Assembly (NCBI GenBank): GCA_035389585.1
Contig: DAOOSC010000001.1
Coordinates: 6,290 to 70,289 of the forward strand
Direction of reading: 5' to 3'
Length of the DNA stretch: 64,000 bases
From: Candidatus Magasanikiibacteriota bacterium
GTDB taxonomy: Bacteria; Patescibacteriota; Patescibacteriia; Magasanikbacterales; UBA922
Shown: positions 27,971 to 51,380 of the stretch, in pieces
Layout of the letters: the number at the start of each line of letters is the position of its first letter
How positions within the stretch are numbered: the stretch's first letter is position 1
Program-made: the position numbers and the translations under genes
The notes under the pieces: generated by a model
Database searches by the model: none
The model's input: only the letters and a program-made list of their open reading frames with translations
What the model was told of the DNA's origin: nothing

Positions 27971-28390
27971 ATGGCACATGTTTGTTCGGCAACTTTGGTG
28001 CGGTGTATGGATTTTCGCCTCACTCGTGATATTCATGATTGGCTGGCCTCGAAGAATCTCGTCAATGACTGTGATATTATTTCTGTCGCTGGGATTGCGA
28101 AAGCGATTGCAGATGATCCGGATTCCGCGGACGCGCAATTTGTTTTGAAGCAAATTGCATTATCAAAAAAATTGCATGATACCAAAATTATTTATCTCAT
28201 GCACCATACGGATTGTGGGGCGTATGGCGGGCATTCAGCTTTTTCGGATCTCGTGACCGAGAAAACCAAATATAGGGAAGATATGCAGAAAGCAAAAGGG
28301 GTGATCGAGGGTTTGGTCTCGGGTGTGGAGGTAAAATTTGCGATTGCTGATATTTTGGATAACGGTCGAGTGGAGATAAAAGAAGTTTAG
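27971..28390 (+). CDS. Small beta-class carbonic-anhydrase-like protein of 140 aa
   Basis: The 'CMDFR' (CxDxR) and 'HHTDCGA' (HxxCG) motifs are spaced about 66 aa apart, as for beta-CA zinc ligands. The protein is much shorter than typical beta-CAs. Confidence 0.55.
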   Translation: MAHVCSATLVRCMDFRLTRDIHDWLASKNLVNDCDIISVAGIAKAIADDPDSADAQFVLKQIALSKKLHDTKIIYLMHHTDCGAYGGHSAFSDLVTEKTKYREDMQKAKGVIEGLVSGVEVKFAIADILDNGRVEIKEV

Positions 28391-28502
28391 TGGAGTGAGT
28401 AATCAAATAAAGTAAAAATGATCAAAAATACCGTTGGTTGACAAGCGGTATTTTTTGTGCTTAAATATAACCTCCTTGTTTTTTACAATTAGGGAGGCGA
28501 AA

Positions 28503-29558
28503 ATGGGTCAGTGTGAATTGGTGGAGATGTTTTTGGGGTACAATCGGTACTATATGGAGGAGTATCAAAAAGTACGTAATGAAGTATTTTCATTGGAGGA
28601 TAAATTAGGGGTGATTACCGTTGTCACTTCGTGTATTGATGGCCGAGTGAAGATGGCCAAGGTCTTCAAAACAATGGTCGAATTTCTGCATGAAATGACT
28701 TCGCCGGGCGGAATATATTCTCTCGGGGTGCGTTCGGTCGGTGATCATATCCGTCATGCTGTTGAGTATGCGGAAGGTCGCGGTCTCGGTACGCTCCTCA
28801 TTGGTACAGCGCATGAGTCTGGGAGACACAGAGATCATGGTTGTGCCGCTATGAATAACGACATCAAAAAAGCGCTTGCTGGCGTGGAAATTTTTCATCG
28901 GCAAGTCAAGCGAGCCTTCCCTCAGGTAGATTGCATCAGAATGTGTCTCGATACCGACGATGATTCGGTGGGGGTGCTTGATCCATCAGGGAATGTGGCC
29001 ATCAGAGTACAGGGAAGATCGCATGTCGGTCAAGAAGATAAAGATTTTTTGGAGCCACTTCAAAAAATCTCCACTGTTGATAGTTCGCGTACTTTGGATG
29101 ATGGCTCAATCCGGGCTCTCGCATATTTACTCGGCAATGCGGTGGAGAGACAAGAAGAATTGTTTGTCTGGCCTAAACCAGAACGACGTTTGTTCCACTG
29201 TGAGAGAGATATTTGTTTTGGCGATGGGCACAAATGGTATTCTCCGGATAATCTGACATTTCATGTTGGGGAGTGGTCATTGAATCCGGCTGATGACTTA
29301 TTGGTCGGGTTGAATCTGGTTGCACGCAATATTATCGAGGGGAAAATTAATATGGATGGCGGATTGTTTGTAGCCAGTAAAGGTTACCGTAAGGAACGTT
29401 ATCGGCATTTGGCAGTTATTGAGGCTTTGGAGTATCTCCGCTTCGGTATGGATGTGATGCGAAAACATAAATATTCTGATATTTTGACACGACATTTCGT
29501 GCCGATTGCGGTAGTGGTAGATATGAATACAATGGAGGCGAGCTTGGTGATTACTTGA
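28503..29558 (+). CDS. Hypothetical protein of 351 aa with an N-terminal beta-CA-like domain carrying a variant metal motif, plus a 230-aa C-terminal extension
   Basis: 'SCIDGR' (CxDxR) and 'DHGCAA' lie about 70 aa apart, mirroring the upstream paralog. An RBS AGGGAGG precedes the ATG at 28503. I did not recognise the C-terminal region. Confidence 0.5.
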   Translation: MGQCELVEMFLGYNRYYMEEYQKVRNEVFSLEDKLGVITVVTSCIDGRVKMAKVFKTMVEFLHEMTSPGGIYSLGVRSVGDHIRHAVEYAEGRGLGTLLIGTAHESGRHRDHGCAAMNNDIKKALAGVEIFHRQVKRAFPQVDCIRMCLDTDDDSVGVLDPSGNVAIRVQGRSHVGQEDKDFLEPLQKISTVDSSRTLDDGSIRALAYLLGNAVERQEELFVWPKPERRLFHCERDICFGDGHKWYSPDNLTFHVGEWSLNPADDLLVGLNLVARNIIEGKINMDGGLFVASKGYRKERYRHLAVIEALEYLRFGMDVMRKHKYSDILTRHFVPIAVVVDMNTMEASLVIT

Positions 29559-29650
29559 TCTTTTGAGTTTTGAACCTTAGTTCTTTTGGGGTGGTTTCGA
29601 CCACTCCTTTTTTTATTGCATTTATTTGGGAAAAATGTCATAATACAGGC

Positions 29651-30184
29651 ATGCGCGCAATTAGGCGCGGTATTATATTTTTTATGGAGAACATTTCATT
29701 TGCGGGGATAGCTAGCATGGCTGGCGGTTTTGTGTTTTTTTTGGTTGCGGCGTCTATTTGGACAGCTGTTTGGAAAGGTCTCGCTCTCTGGCGAGCGGCT
29801 CGTCTGAAGAGTGTTGGTTGGTTTGTGGCCTTGCTTTTCATCAATACAATGGGAATTCTCGAAATTATCTACATTCTCGCGGTTGCGAAGAAAATGAAAG
29901 GTCCGGAACTGCGTGACGGGAAGTTGCGTTTTTCCGAGGAGGAAGCCAAAGCTATCGGGGAGTTTCTCGGAATCAAATGGGATAAATACAACGTAGCGCA
30001 GTTTCATCGTGGCATGAATGTAGAACTCGAGCATGGTTCAGAGAATTCACTCACAGATGTGACGGGGGATGATGCTGTGTTGACCGGTAAAATTGCATTA
30101 GCCCATCTCAACGAATTTGCGGATTATTATGATCGTCTCGATCGAATGGAAGAAGATGCACACGCTTTTTGGGATAAGAAATAA
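29651..30184 (+). CDS. Hypothetical membrane protein with two N-terminal TM helices and a conserved-looking C-terminal domain carrying an 'ELEHG' motif
   Basis: A TTGCAT-N17-TCATAAT promoter-like element ends about 6 nt before the ATG, so the transcript may be leaderless. No family was assigned. Confidence 0.45.
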   Translation: MRAIRRGIIFFMENISFAGIASMAGGFVFFLVAASIWTAVWKGLALWRAARLKSVGWFVALLFINTMGILEIIYILAVAKKMKGPELRDGKLRFSEEEAKAIGEFLGIKWDKYNVAQFHRGMNVELEHGSENSLTDVTGDDAVLTGKIALAHLNEFADYYDRLDRMEEDAHAFWDKK

Positions 30185-47771: not shown

Positions 47772-49019
47772 TTAGTTTGGAAGGTAAGCGAGAGGATTCA
47801 CTGGGATGCCATTTTTGCGACATTCGAAGTGGAGGTGAGGGCCGGTGACGAATGGTCCAGCTCCAACTGTGCCCGGTGTTCCTCCAGAGGCGCCGATTAT
47901 ATCCCCTATCGTCACAAATTGATCTTCTTTCACATAAATACTGCTCAAATGTCCATAGACAGTTGACAATCCCCCACTATGCACGATCATGACATAACTA
48001 TAACATGAAGCGAGTGAACAGGTTTTCGCGCGGGCGATATATCCAGAACCAGCGGCTTTGACTGGGGTGCCTTGTCCAGCGCGGACATCAATGCCATTGT
48101 GCTCAAAAACGTTTCTATAGGGGTAGTCTGGGTCGTGGAAAAATGACGTGACAACACGGCTCGGTACCGGCCAATTAAATACACCACCGCTTTCCATTTC
48201 GGCATTAATTTTTTTCTGTGATTCGAGTTTTTTTCGTACTTCTTGTTCAATGGATTCAATTTCACCTTCGATTGCCTGATACTGGCTTTTTTGATTAGCG
48301 AGGAGGGTTTTGTATTTGAGTTCGGAAGATTGAGTTTGGGCGAGAAGATTTCCTTTGAGAAAACCTTGTTCTTCGAGTTTCTTTTTTTTCAATGCAAGTT
48401 CTTCGCTGGTTTTTTTGTAGGCAGTTTCTCGCTCTGTGGCAATGTTTTTCTTTTCGTCCAATTCTGATTTAGAAATTTTAATACCTCTTACATTGGTGCC
48501 GAGATTTCTTTCAATATTTTCTAGGTATTGGATACGATTGTAGAAATCAGAGAAATTGTCGTAAGTGGCGGCAATTTGAATATAATTTCGGTTTTCTTGA
48601 AGATAGATTGTTCGGATCAGTTCGGCGAGCATTTTTTGTTGTTTCGCGATGCTAGCTTCTTTGTCCTGGATTGACAGATCGAGAGCGGAAATTTCGAGCT
48701 GAATTGATGAGAGTTGAGTCTCGGTAGCTTCGATATCAAACTCGACCTGACGTGTTTGGTTGTCTAAAATTGAAATTTGATTAGAGAGTGAGACAGCTTC
48801 TTTACGTTTAGCATCGATTTTTTGTTTGAATTCTTCAATGCTTTTTTCGAGTTGTTTGATCTTGTCTCGTTTTTCGGTAATTTTCTGGTTCAAGGTGTCA
48901 ATTTCAGCAGAGTTCCCCCCTACACCGCTATTCGTTAGCGCAACTGATTTGGAGGGAAAAGAAAAGACTGATCCGAAAATGGCCAGGAAAAATATAGTAA
49001 TTAAATACCGGTATTTCAT
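47772..49019 (-). CDS. Peptidase M23 protein with an N-terminal coiled-coil (EnvC-like architecture but catalytically intact)
   Basis: A signal/TM segment, about 250 aa of heptad-rich coiled coil, and C-terminal M23 with 'HNGIDV' and 'PHLHFE'. Confidence 0.8.
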   Translation of the reverse strand: MKYRYLITIFFLAIFGSVFSFPSKSVALTNSGVGGNSAEIDTLNQKITEKRDKIKQLEKSIEEFKQKIDAKRKEAVSLSNQISILDNQTRQVEFDIEATETQLSSIQLEISALDLSIQDKEASIAKQQKMLAELIRTIYLQENRNYIQIAATYDNFSDFYNRIQYLENIERNLGTNVRGIKISKSELDEKKNIATERETAYKKTSEELALKKKKLEEQGFLKGNLLAQTQSSELKYKTLLANQKSQYQAIEGEIESIEQEVRKKLESQKKINAEMESGGVFNWPVPSRVVTSFFHDPDYPYRNVFEHNGIDVRAGQGTPVKAAGSGYIARAKTCSLASCYSYVMIVHSGGLSTVYGHLSSIYVKEDQFVTIGDIIGASGGTPGTVGAGPFVTGPHLHFECRKNGIPVNPLAYLPN

Positions 49020-49058
49020 AATACTGGTATTATATCACATGATTTGTTTTTCAGAAAA

Positions 49059-50546
49059 TTAAGCAGATAACTTCGTGATAGCTTTTTTCAAGCGAGCCAA
49101 AGTTTTCTCTGATCCCAGGACAGCCATGATTTCAAACGACCCTGGAGATTTCTCGAGGCCGGAGAGCGCGACTCGAAGCGGCCAGAGTATATCCCCATTA
49201 GTCAGTCCGTTGTCCGCGATCCATTTTTTAGTTTCCGTCTCCAAAATTTCTTTTTTCCACTCGCCTTTCCACTCCGACAAAAATCCCTGGATCAATTCCA
49301 AATTTTTCAAAGCATCTGTCCGATTTGATTTCTTCCAAACTAAAATTTCCGGGGGATAATCGGTCGGTTCGCTAATCAAATACCCAACGGCCGTTGTAAT
49401 TTCATCGAGCCGCGCGACTCTTTCTTTTTCGAGAGATAGCGCAGGAATTATTTCCGATAATTTTTTTTTATCAACTTCGTTTGGCACGAGTCCCGCTTTG
49501 GCCAAATACGGCCAACAAGCGAGTGCAAACGACTCCGCTGACATTAGTTTGATATATTGTTTATTGTACCAGTCTAGTTTTTCCAAATTGAACACTGCCC
49601 CTTTTTTTGCCGTCTTCTCGATTGAATAATCCTGAATCAATTCCGCGAGCGAGTACATTTCCTTTTCTCCGCCAGGATTCCAACCTAAAAAGGCGACAAA
49701 ATTTATAAGCGCCTCCGGCAAATAGCCCTTTTTACGATAATCATCAACCGATACATCACCCTGTCGTTTGGATAATTTGGAACCATCTGTATTTAACAAA
49801 AGTGGTAGGTGAGCAAATGCAGGGATTTCCCAACCAAAATATTTATATAATTGCACGTGCTTTGGTGTCGAAGACAACCATTCTTCGCCGCGAATAATGT
49901 GCGTAATTTCCATGAAATGATCATCCACGACCACAGCGAGATGATATGTCGGGAAACCATCAGACTTCAAAATCACCTGATCATCAATCAATTCATTTTT
50001 GAACACCACTTCTCCGCGAATCAAATCATTAATTTTTGTTTCGCCCGTTCGTGGCATTTTCATGCGTACGACAAATTTTTCTCCCGCCTTGATTCGAGCC
50101 TCAGCTTCTTCGCGTGTCACATTTCGACAATTTCCATCATAACCAGTCGGCTGTTTATTCAATTCTTGTAATTTTCGCACTTCATCCAATCTCTCAGCCG
50201 AACAAAAACAATAATACGCGTGATCATTGGCAATTAATTCGTCAACGTATTTTTTGTAAATTGGTAAACGTAGTGACTGGGTGTACGGACCATTTTCACC
50301 TGCTTCAGACGGTTCACCATCCGCGCCTCGGACGACTCCTTCGTCTGGCACGACACCTGCCCAGTATAATGATTTCAAAATATTTGCAACTCCATCATCT
50401 ACAAAACGCGCGCGATCAGTATCTTCAATACGTAAAATAAAATGACCAGATTTTTTTTTGGCTAATAAATACGCATAAAGAGCGGTGCGTAAACTACCGA
50501 TATGTAAATACCCCGTTGGTGATGGCGCGAATCTAGTTTTAATCAT
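49059..50546 (-). CDS. gltX: Glutamate--tRNA ligase
   Basis: The 'RFAPSPTGYLHIGS' HIGH motif and the 'KLSKR' KMSKS motif. The start was chosen at the internal ATG preceding the HIGH region. Confidence 0.85.
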   Translation of the reverse strand: MIKTRFAPSPTGYLHIGSLRTALYAYLLAKKKSGHFILRIEDTDRARFVDDGVANILKSLYWAGVVPDEGVVRGADGEPSEAGENGPYTQSLRLPIYKKYVDELIANDHAYYCFCSAERLDEVRKLQELNKQPTGYDGNCRNVTREEAEARIKAGEKFVVRMKMPRTGETKINDLIRGEVVFKNELIDDQVILKSDGFPTYHLAVVVDDHFMEITHIIRGEEWLSSTPKHVQLYKYFGWEIPAFAHLPLLLNTDGSKLSKRQGDVSVDDYRKKGYLPEALINFVAFLGWNPGGEKEMYSLAELIQDYSIEKTAKKGAVFNLEKLDWYNKQYIKLMSAESFALACWPYLAKAGLVPNEVDKKKLSEIIPALSLEKERVARLDEITTAVGYLISEPTDYPPEILVWKKSNRTDALKNLELIQGFLSEWKGEWKKEILETETKKWIADNGLTNGDILWPLRVALSGLEKSPGSFEIMAVLGSEKTLARLKKAITKLSA

Positions 50547-51285
50547 AGTGTTTGAAAAAATATTTGAAATTCTGTAATGTAAATACGACTGTGGCGCGAT
50601 ATATCCGTCCAATTCGTTTCGGTTCACAAATCAAACGCCATAGCCATTCTAGCCCAATTTTGCGTAAAAAGCAAGGCGCACGGCGCTGTACACCAGCGAT
50701 CATGTCGATCGATCCGCCGACCCCCATCATGATGCGAACACTCGGGAAATCTTTCTTGTGTTTCATAATCCATTTTTCTTGCTTGCCATGACCAAAAGCG
50801 ACAAATACTATTTCCGGCGCCGTCATAATTATCTGATTGATTGATTCTTCATCGACTGATTCATCAGTAATCTTTCCCGACTGATCGAAATGCGGACCGA
50901 TATTTGTGCCAGAAATAATTATTCGTGGATACTTTTCTTTAATCTTCGCAACCGCTGTGCCCAAAGTTTTCTGATTCCCCGTACCGAGCAAAAATATTTT
51001 CGATGATTTTTCATTTGCAATTTCTAGAATATCCCTCATGAGTTCAACGCCTGGATAACGTGGTAAATGACCTCGTGTCAGTATAGTAATACCAGAACCA
51101 TCCGCGACATTCAGGTCAGAACTATTTAATACGTGTGCGAATTCCCCATCTTTGCGTGCCAATACAATCATCTCCGGATTAGGTGTGAAAATCGTTCGAA
51201 CTTTATTACCATTCAAAAAATCACGCACCTGTGAAAGCACCTCTGTCGGTAGTTTGTTTGTAATTTCAATTTGACTGAATTTCAT
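50539..51285 (-). CDS. WecB/TagA/CpsF family glycosyltransferase (GT26)
   Basis: The C-terminal 'EWLWRL..EPKR' motif and overall length of about 250 aa. An alternative upstream start is at 51330. Confidence 0.75.
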   Translation of the reverse strand: MKFSQIEITNKLPTEVLSQVRDFLNGNKVRTIFTPNPEMIVLARKDGEFAHVLNSSDLNVADGSGITILTRGHLPRYPGVELMRDILEIANEKSSKIFLLGTGNQKTLGTAVAKIKEKYPRIIISGTNIGPHFDQSGKITDESVDEESINQIIMTAPEIVFVAFGHGKQEKWIMKHKKDFPSVRIMMGVGGSIDMIAGVQRRAPCFLRKIGLEWLWRLICEPKRIGRIYRATVVFTLQNFKYFFKHYD

Positions 51286-51291
51286 GGATAC

Positions 51292-51320
51292 TTGACAAAT
51301 AAGGAAAGCTTTGCTATGAT
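51292..51320 (+). promoter_or_regulatory. Sigma70-like promoter (TTGACA-N17-TATGAT)
   Basis: Read directly. It overlaps the divergent GT26 start region. Confidence 0.45.
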
Positions 51321-51380
51321 GTTTAGTCATTATGACCGCATCTCATGAGGGGTGCGAACTGTTCTTTTGGAGGTATTTTC

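Follow-up and report, generated by a model that had tools for sequence, protein, structure and literature searches.

What are two neighbouring genes of a Patescibacteria genome that both carry the marks of a carbonic anhydrase: one gene and its altered copy, or two enzymes of separate descent? The question is raised by genes A and B, two open reading frames (ORFs) on the + strand of a 64,000-nucleotide (nt) stretch of contig DAOOSC010000001.1 from a Candidatus Magasanikiibacteriota bacterium, referred to here as the window. Gene A (27971..28390, +) encodes 139 amino acids (aa) followed by a stop codon; gene B (28503..29558, +) encodes 351 aa from an ATG at 28503, and a spacer of 112 nt separates the two. 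A first-pass annotation had placed both genes at these coordinates and had read both products as similar to beta-class carbonic anhydrases (beta-CAs) from their CxDxR-type and His/Cys motifs. This reading holds, for A through the Pfam family Pro_CA_2 and for B through profile matches to CsoSCA, with a Cys/His/Cys site and an Asp-Arg dyad conserved in the homologs of both. Both proteins are members of the beta-CA superfamily, with its catalytic residues conserved and its fold. Sequence comparison places them in two deeply separated branches of that superfamily. We consider it probable that A and B are two independent cytosolic zinc enzymes of the beta-class carbonic anhydrase type, which interconvert CO2 and bicarbonate; zinc binding, activity, cytosolic location and independent transcription are predicted properties in this proposal.

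Gene A is a minimal beta-CA with a canonical site and belongs to a named, uncharacterised family, as indicated by Pfam, by its homologs and by its model. The product matches Pfam PF20393, Pro_CA_2 ('putative carbonic anhydrase'), with 62.7 bits (E=5e-17) over profile positions 5-110 of 125, the gathering cut-off of this family being 30 bits. Homologs at E<=1e-3 number 83 and are nearly all 122-153 aa long; those with a named source are mostly assigned to Magasanikbacteria, Uhrbacteria or other Patescibacteria. The codon coordinates of the motifs in both genes were checked via translation, which confirmed the CMDFR and HHTDCGA of A and the SCIDGR and DHGCAA of B that the first-pass annotation had reported. 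In A, the segment C12-M-D14-F-R16 (28004..28018, +), with the predicted first zinc ligand and the Asp-Arg dyad, is invariant in a 35-sequence alignment. The same is true of H79-T-D-C82 (28205..28216, +), a canonical HxxC with the predicted second and third ligands, which aligns with solved beta-CAs. Invariant positions in this alignment are C12, D14, F15, R16, D35, S38, A40, G41, H69, H79, D81, C82, G83, Y85 and E97. Beyond the zinc site, the invariant or near-invariant residues of Pro_CA_2 are H3, C5, D35, H69, Y85 and E97; H3 and C5 could provide so short an enzyme with a second metal-binding or lid element.

The structural comparison agrees with the family assignment of A. A profile of the Pro_CA_2 family reaches the solved beta-CAs CafC and Rv1284 at E ~5e-5, with HHTDCG aligned. 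The AlphaFold (AF2) model of A has a mean predicted local distance difference test (pLDDT) score of 95.1, and its top Foldseek matches are beta-CAs, namely Cab (1g5c, E=5e-6, TMq 0.59) and 6y04 (TMq 0.64), although the template-modelling (TM) scores are only moderate. Gene A shares the CxDxR...HxxCG site and the beta-CA fold with Pro_CA_2/Cab-type enzymes such as M. thermoautotrophicum Cab (1G5C) and M. tuberculosis Rv1284, but the smallest solved beta-CAs among its matches (164-172 aa) exceed its 139 aa by ~25-30 residues. In the proposed mechanism, zinc would be held by C12, H79 and C82, and the D14-R16 dyad would set the orientation of the hydroxide on the zinc for its attack on CO2. A is presumably a homodimer, as other beta-CAs are. 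No mention of Pro_CA_2 or PF20393 was found in the literature searched.

Gene B is almost certainly a homolog of CsoSCA. An exhaustive phmmer search with B against 1.84 billion cluster representatives (E<=1e-3) returned 110 proteins, the best of which, B aside, has E=8e-17. These proteins are 20-28% identical to B, mostly 340-370 aa long and mostly aligned with it from end to end. A word-indexed search of a 5.8-billion-cluster database retrieved B only. When B was aligned with 39 homologs, C44, D46, R48, G69, H104, C114, T151, N212, H232, E234 and G240 were invariant. Pfam PF20686, CsoSCA_cat, is matched by 34 of the 40 aligned sequences (best E 7e-10); B itself gave no direct match to it. The profile of the B-family alignment matches the CsoSCA structures of Cyanobium (8thm, E=5e-18) and Halothiobacillus neapolitanus (2fgy, E=2e-16), with the blocks CxDGR, YHFS...GCA, (E/D)TD and HxER in register. 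Against a homolog profile from which it had been left out, B still reaches 190 bits over residues 4-347; therefore, the family membership of B is not circular, and its motifs, like those of A, are no chance occurrence. Finally, the AlphaFold model of B has a pLDDT of 92.7 and a predicted TM score (pTM) of 0.90, and CsoSCA structures rank first among its Foldseek matches (E ~1e-14, TM 0.72-0.75).

The anatomy of the model follows that of CsoSCA. A helix (residues 3-35) is followed by a catalytic domain that runs from residue 36 to ~235, and residues ~236-351 form a second beta-CA-like domain without ligand motifs. On the DNA, the N-terminal helical region (residues 1-35) occupies 28503..28607 (+) and stands in for the 144-aa N-terminal domain of CsoSCA, and the C-terminal degenerate beta-CA repeat (residues 236-351), which lacks metal ligands, occupies 29208..29555 (+). 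The C-terminal two-thirds of B, which had been described as matching nothing recognisable, align with the remainder of the CsoSCA catalytic domain and with the degenerate C-terminal domain. B would thus be a single chain imitating a beta-CA dimer, made of an active domain and a degenerate domain without a metal site. The tandem-repeat beta-CA of Porphyridium purpureum (1DDZ) has zinc sites in both repeats, whereas in B only the first repeat has one.

Which residues form this site can be read from the alignment and the model together. The segment C44-I-D46-G-R48 (28632..28646, +), with a predicted zinc ligand and the Asp-Arg dyad, aligns with CADGR of 2fgy and 8thm. The stretch from H104 to C114 (HESGRHRDHGC; 28812..28844, +), with the predicted second and third ligands, aligns with YHFS...GCA of CsoSCA and spans H112. 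In the model, C44 ends strand 37-44, H104 ends strand 96-105 and C114 lies in the next loop, which is the ligand topology of beta-CAs. Among the 185 B homologs, H104 and C114 are kept in all 185 and the positions of C44, D46 and R48 in 178-184; the 10-residue spacing between H104 and C114 is found in 171 of 186 sequences, compared with a His-Cys spacing of 11 in the YHFS...GC block of H. neapolitanus CsoSCA. The first-pass annotation had seen a variant metal site in the HxC of B, with H112 as the ligand. However, position 112 is not conserved, being Arg in 132 of the 185 homologs and His in only 3, and the HxC is a coincidence. The zinc ligands of H. neapolitanus CsoSCA (2FGY), which we take to be Cys173, His242 and Cys253 in standard numbering, would correspond to C44, H104 and C114 of B, and by alignment D46 and R48 are Asp175 and Arg177 of the same enzyme. 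Thus C44, H104 and C114 are the predicted zinc ligands of B, and homology and topology suggest that they cluster in space. H232-C-E234 (29196..29204, +) aligns with HAER of 2fgy and is the equivalent of His397/Glu399 of H. neapolitanus CsoSCA, which position the active-site water and bicarbonate according to cryo-electron microscopy and mutagenesis (bioRxiv 10.64898/2026.04.02.716132). All seven catalytic or zinc-site residues are retained in B. Its active domain would therefore hold zinc on C44/H104/C114, carry the D46-R48 dyad and use H232-E234 to position water and bicarbonate.

With the carboxysomal CsoSCA (H. neapolitanus 2FGY/9G4T; Cyanobium 8THM), B shares the Cys/His/Cys site with its long His-Cys spacing, the Asp-Arg dyad, the His397/Glu399 equivalents and a pseudo-dimeric two-domain chain. 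It differs from these enzymes in having no 144-aa N-terminal domain, no Rubisco-binding peptide and no Cys283/Cys284 switch, in its shorter loops, and in its host, which belongs to the Patescibacteria (candidate phyla radiation, CPR) and has no carboxysome genes that were found nearby. Indeed, the ORF inventory of the window, scanned in part with Pfam, is of housekeeping type only, and no carboxysome genes were seen near B. In carboxysomal CsoSCA, Cys283/Cys284 is a vicinal redox switch that holds the enzyme inactive in the reducing cytosol, and it is present in ~80% of CsoSCA. The 'ahCCg' segment that carries this switch is an insertion relative to the B-family profile, and the cysteines of B (4, 44, 114, 144, 148, 233 and 238) include no Cys-Cys pair. 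The N-terminus of B, with only 35 residues, has no Rubisco-binding region. From the lack of both the Rubisco-binding N-terminus and the vicinal-cysteine switch, we therefore infer that B is free in the reducing cytosol and not redox-gated.

Non-carboxysomal CsoSCA homologs have been named 'CsoSCA2' (Front Microbiol 2022, PMC9164163). In that description, compact CsoSCA2 have a ~40-residue N-terminus, one active domain and one defunct one, the full set of catalytic residues and shorter loops; Nitrosomonas oligotropha is one of the hosts given, and CsoSCA2 proteins are said to 'have yet to be studied' (PMC9164163). Patescibacteria hosts are unmentioned in the CsoSCA2 description text (PMC9164163), and the only later use of CsoSCA2 in the literature searched is as a phylogenetic outgroup, in one paper. 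B belongs to this named, uncharacterised family, as a highly divergent member of the compact variant. It shares with compact CsoSCA2 a length of ~350 aa, a short helical N-terminus, the active and defunct beta-CA domains, all catalytic residues and a location away from carboxysome genes. Compared with them, however, it is an extreme outlier that goes unrecognised by Pfam and NCBI annotation, typical CsoSCA2 members carrying the NCBI name 'carboxysome shell carbonic anhydrase domain-containing protein'.

The NCBI record for B, HOX60409.1 (Candidatus Magasanikbacteria), is annotated as hypothetical and gives a protein of 334 aa that starts at Met18. The 351-aa start is preferable and the deposited one is probably too short, because a Shine-Dalgarno sequence, GGGAGG (28492..28497, +), precedes the ATG of gene B by 5 nt and because the 17 extra residues belong to a helix that is modelled with confidence and aligns with the family. 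By direct reading, the A-B spacer contains a promoter-like element, TTGACA followed after 17-18 nt by TTAAAT/TAAATA (28438..28467, +); this is weak evidence, and the element was not flagged by a consensus scan because its -10 is imperfect. At a distance of 30 nt past the stop codon of B comes a GC-rich terminator-like hairpin, GGGGTGGTTTCGACCACTCC, with T7 behind it (29588..29617, +). Together, the Shine-Dalgarno sequence, the promoter-like element and the hairpin suggest, at the level of sequence, that B may be expressed on its own. The same hairpin falls within the next listed ORF, which starts with TTG (29570-30184) and whose product fuses DUF5652 (membrane) with DUF5661; therefore, the real start of this ORF is probably the ATG at 29651. 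In one related locus (L001; retrieved loci are designated by L numbers), DUF5661 is a separate 92-aa gene that comes after an unannotated 53-aa ORF.

Around the pair, the window contains murA upstream, the DUF5652/DUF5661 membrane protein, a DUF5698 protein and a UvrD/PD-(D/E)XK helicase. No tRNA genes, riboswitches or other Rfam matches were found across the whole 64-kb window. From 1 to ~48 kb, a stretch with almost all genes on the + strand, its GC skew is strongly positive; around 48-52 kb it falls to about zero or below, with a block of minus-strand genes at 47772-51330.

Comparison with related genomes shows where gene A usually resides. In Magasanikbacteria relatives (L001-L005), gene A is 59-64% identical and the gene order is the atp operon, in some cases a Na+/H+ exchanger, Pro_CA_2 and then small/DUF5661 genes, with no gene B. 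In L001-L003 and L087, the Na+/H+ exchanger gene lies between atpC and Pro_CA_2, and a UvrD/PD-(D/E)XK helicase comes after the small/DUF5661 genes; L088 has atpC, then Pro_CA_2, with the helicase further downstream. The window shares the order Pro_CA_2 ... DUF5652/DUF5661 ... helicase with these relatives, and B is the sole extra gene between Pro_CA_2 and the DUF5661 gene, for which ancient insertion and loss are both possible. The GC content of B and its GC content at third codon positions (GC3) are those of the genome and the surrounding genes, a composition that does not support a recent horizontal acquisition.

Co-occurrence of the two genes, put forward in the first-pass annotation as a check, was borne out in part: two further Patescibacteria loci have the A-then-B tandem, but the closer Magasanikbacteria relatives carry A only. 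The first of these loci (L068, assigned to Patescibacteria) reads atpC, Pro_CA_2, CsoSCA2, UvrD, and the second (L082, labelled Saccharibacteria) reads atpD, atpC, Pro_CA_2, CsoSCA2, glutaredoxin; the taxon assignments of the loci follow the labels of metagenome-assembled genome records, which can be wrong. A degenerate Pro_CA_2-like ORF was also observed at L008 7369-7797, just downstream of a Doudnabacteria CsoSCA2 gene. It scores 24 bits, below the Pfam cut-off, has neither CxDxR nor HxxCG, and could be the tandem partner in a decayed form.

For CsoSCA2, 79 loci were retrieved via the pattern G[IL]ETDxD[AT]L[IV], so this set is biased towards carriers of the pattern. CsoSCA2 comes directly after atpC in 11 of the 79, which are mostly assigned to Patescibacteria, and several have a UvrD-type helicase downstream. 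The slot after atpD-atpC, in mostly Patescibacteria loci, can be occupied by Pro_CA_2, by CsoSCA2 or by both; the CsoSCA2 loci of this kind are L008, L044, L045, L056, L062, L066, L067, L068, L069, L078 and L082, the Pro_CA_2 loci are L001-L005, L087 and L088, and many of them have the UvrD/PD-(D/E)XK helicase downstream. That one slot is filled by either or both beta-CA lineages is therefore read as support for equivalent biochemical roles, and this Patescibacteria synteny makes a link of the A and B genes to the ion and pH economy of the cell possible.

What, then, would the two enzymes do? Both would most likely catalyse CO2 + H2O <-> HCO3- + H+. Their role may be an equilibration of CO2, bicarbonate and protons tied to ion and pH homeostasis, and not carbon fixation, because in related genomes these genes have the ATP synthase operon and a Na+/H+ exchanger as neighbours. 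Of all steps of the proposal, this role is the weakest.

Several observations weigh against two ordinary carbonic anhydrases at this locus. The atp operon is not adjacent to A-B in the window, where murA lies upstream instead, and the literature searched reports no assay of any Pro_CA_2 or CsoSCA2 member. The Pfam search suggested by the first-pass annotation succeeded with A, which matches Pro_CA_2, but B alone matches no family there (none at E<=1) and has no usable match in NCBIfam, PHROGs, PADLOC or PDB sequences either. No close relative of B exists among ~15 billion proteins. CsoSCA2 members of Patescibacteria and Nitrosomonas share 38-49% identity across phyla, whereas B is 20-26% identical to all of its 185 relatives; B is a long-branch singleton inside CsoSCA2. 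Of 52 columns kept in >=80% of these relatives, B keeps 26, including every catalytic residue, and alters the rest, for example by R66T, Y103A, G116A, G148C and H159L; the count of changed columns is approximate, since a few changes, the 212/213 pair at the least, come from shifts in the alignment. A branch of this length would fit relaxed selection or an altered function.

It is from this divergence that the best surviving alternative takes its force. In this explanation, B kept its metal site and changed its job after redundancy with A had relaxed selection, becoming either a hydrolase of CO2 analogues (carbonyl sulfide, COS; carbon disulfide, CS2; cyanate-type) or a metal-dependent binding or regulatory protein. 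A long-branch singleton with at most 26% identity and no close homolog, in which about half of the family-conserved positions are replaced and the catalytic residues kept, could have arisen in this way; moreover, COS and CS2 hydrolases have the same fold and ligand set, and a second carbonic anhydrase gene adjoins B. We nevertheless regard such a change as unlikely, as the seven catalytic and zinc-site residues that B retains include the CsoSCA-specific H232/E234 pair, its model is a full and confident CsoSCA fold, and no substrate-tunnel features of COS/CS2 hydrolases were identified in it. Retained carbonic anhydrase activity of B remains our preferred reading.

The wider CsoSCA2 family raises another possibility, since ion-translocating machinery adjoins CsoSCA2 in 52 of the 79 loci. 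In 35 Nitrosomonadaceae loci, three PF00361 genes (Proton_antipo_M, NuoL/M/N or Mrp-like) are followed directly by CsoSCA2 on the same strand. This four-gene cluster spans 1253-7029 in L032 (Nitrosomonas oligotropha Nm75) and is also found in L009, L010, L012-L034, L036-L043, L046 and L059; the cultured N. oligotropha, N. aestuarii and N. communis are among its carriers. It is a candidate for a new energy-coupled CO2-hydration system, and no description of an antiporter-CsoSCA2 operon was found in the literature searched. In a locus assigned to Moraniibacteriota (L078 5549-12769), CsoSCA2 lies between atpC and NuoB-, NuoL-, NuoH/K- and NuoM-like genes. The closest homolog of B (P0085; L007 1-1633) follows a fragment of a NuoD-like (Complex1_49kDa) gene. 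Candidate partners of CsoSCA2 are thus, for Nitrosomonadaceae, antiporter subunits of the Mrp/Nuo type and, for Patescibacteria, complex-I-like modules or the ATP synthase. CsoSCA2 genes were also observed as tandem duplicates (L021 5821-8251, L070 5514-7795, L079 5923-8219) and, in one locus, as a divergently oriented pair (L048 1086-3426).

A broad generalisation can be drawn from these neighbourhoods: CsoSCA2 enzymes would be the catalytic heads of ion-translocating membrane modules and form a third energy-coupled system for CO2 hydration or the handling of bicarbonate and protons, beside NDH-1/Cup and DAB, and B of the window would be a fast-evolving stand-alone derivative that works with the adjacent Pro_CA_2 in pH and ion homeostasis. 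We hold this to be speculative and quite improbable. Slightly less probable still is the narrower proposal that B, and perhaps A, itself acts as soluble catalytic partner to a membrane machine that translocates ions, with directional, energy-coupled CO2 hydration or bicarbonate/proton handling in the manner of DabA-DabB or CupA-NDH-1. The PF00361 clusters, the Nuo-like genes next to CsoSCA2 in L078 and next to the best homolog of B, the 11 loci with atpC directly upstream and the Magasanikbacteria order, with Pro_CA_2 after the atp operon and Na+/H+ exchanger, would all fit such a partnership. Yet the window offers no partner: BLAST detected in it no ATP synthase ORF and none like the three Nitrosomonas antiporter-like proteins, the neighbours of the pair being murA, DUF5652/DUF5661, DUF5698 and the helicase, and B seemingly has its own promoter-like element and terminator-like hairpin. 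In addition, the atp synteny in small Patescibacteria genomes may be an inherited order without functional meaning, and the pattern used for retrieval biases the set of loci. The likeness to DabA/DabB (DAB, MpsAB) and CupA/NDH-1 exists at the family level only, via the antiporter-like and complex-I-like neighbours of CsoSCA2; B of the window has no such neighbour and, having no Pfam match at E<=1, is not of the DabA family.

Least credible by far is the model of the first-pass annotation, in which B arose by duplication of a minimal carbonic anhydrase like A and fusion to an unknown domain, giving a non-canonical enzyme or sensor with an HxC site: the adjacency of A and B and their common CxDxR motif speak for it, but pairwise BLASTP and profile-profile comparison found no A-B similarity (the hhalign probability for the two families is 2.8%), so that the duplication was rejected, and B aligns from end to end with a ~350-aa family homologous to CsoSCA, the supposed extension is part of the CsoSCA fold, H104 and not H112 is invariant, and nothing points to a sensor module.

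Altogether, two enzymes from separate branches of one superfamily remain the best account of this locus. Taken alone, the window yields mostly a correct filing of A and B into families that already had names, and its interest comes mainly from the extreme divergence of B, its Patescibacteria host and the context seen at the family level. The 'hypothetical protein' HOX60409.1 is now recognisable as a CsoSCA-type carbonic anhydrase, and it shows the extent to which the CsoSCA lineage can drift with its catalytic residues retained. CsoSCA-like enzymes, usually discussed as components of carboxysomes, are hereby placed in Patescibacteria; a member of this lineage in such a host, with no carboxysome genes seen nearby, lends support to the published view of the carboxysomal enzyme as a descendant of a broader cytosolic family. 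Pro_CA_2 and CsoSCA2 are both biochemically uncharacterised, and A or B would be the first characterised enzyme of its family. Finally, the shared slot after the ATP synthase genes and the links to antiporters raise the question of whether carbonic anhydrases take part in the ion and pH economy of minimal cells and of ammonia oxidisers.

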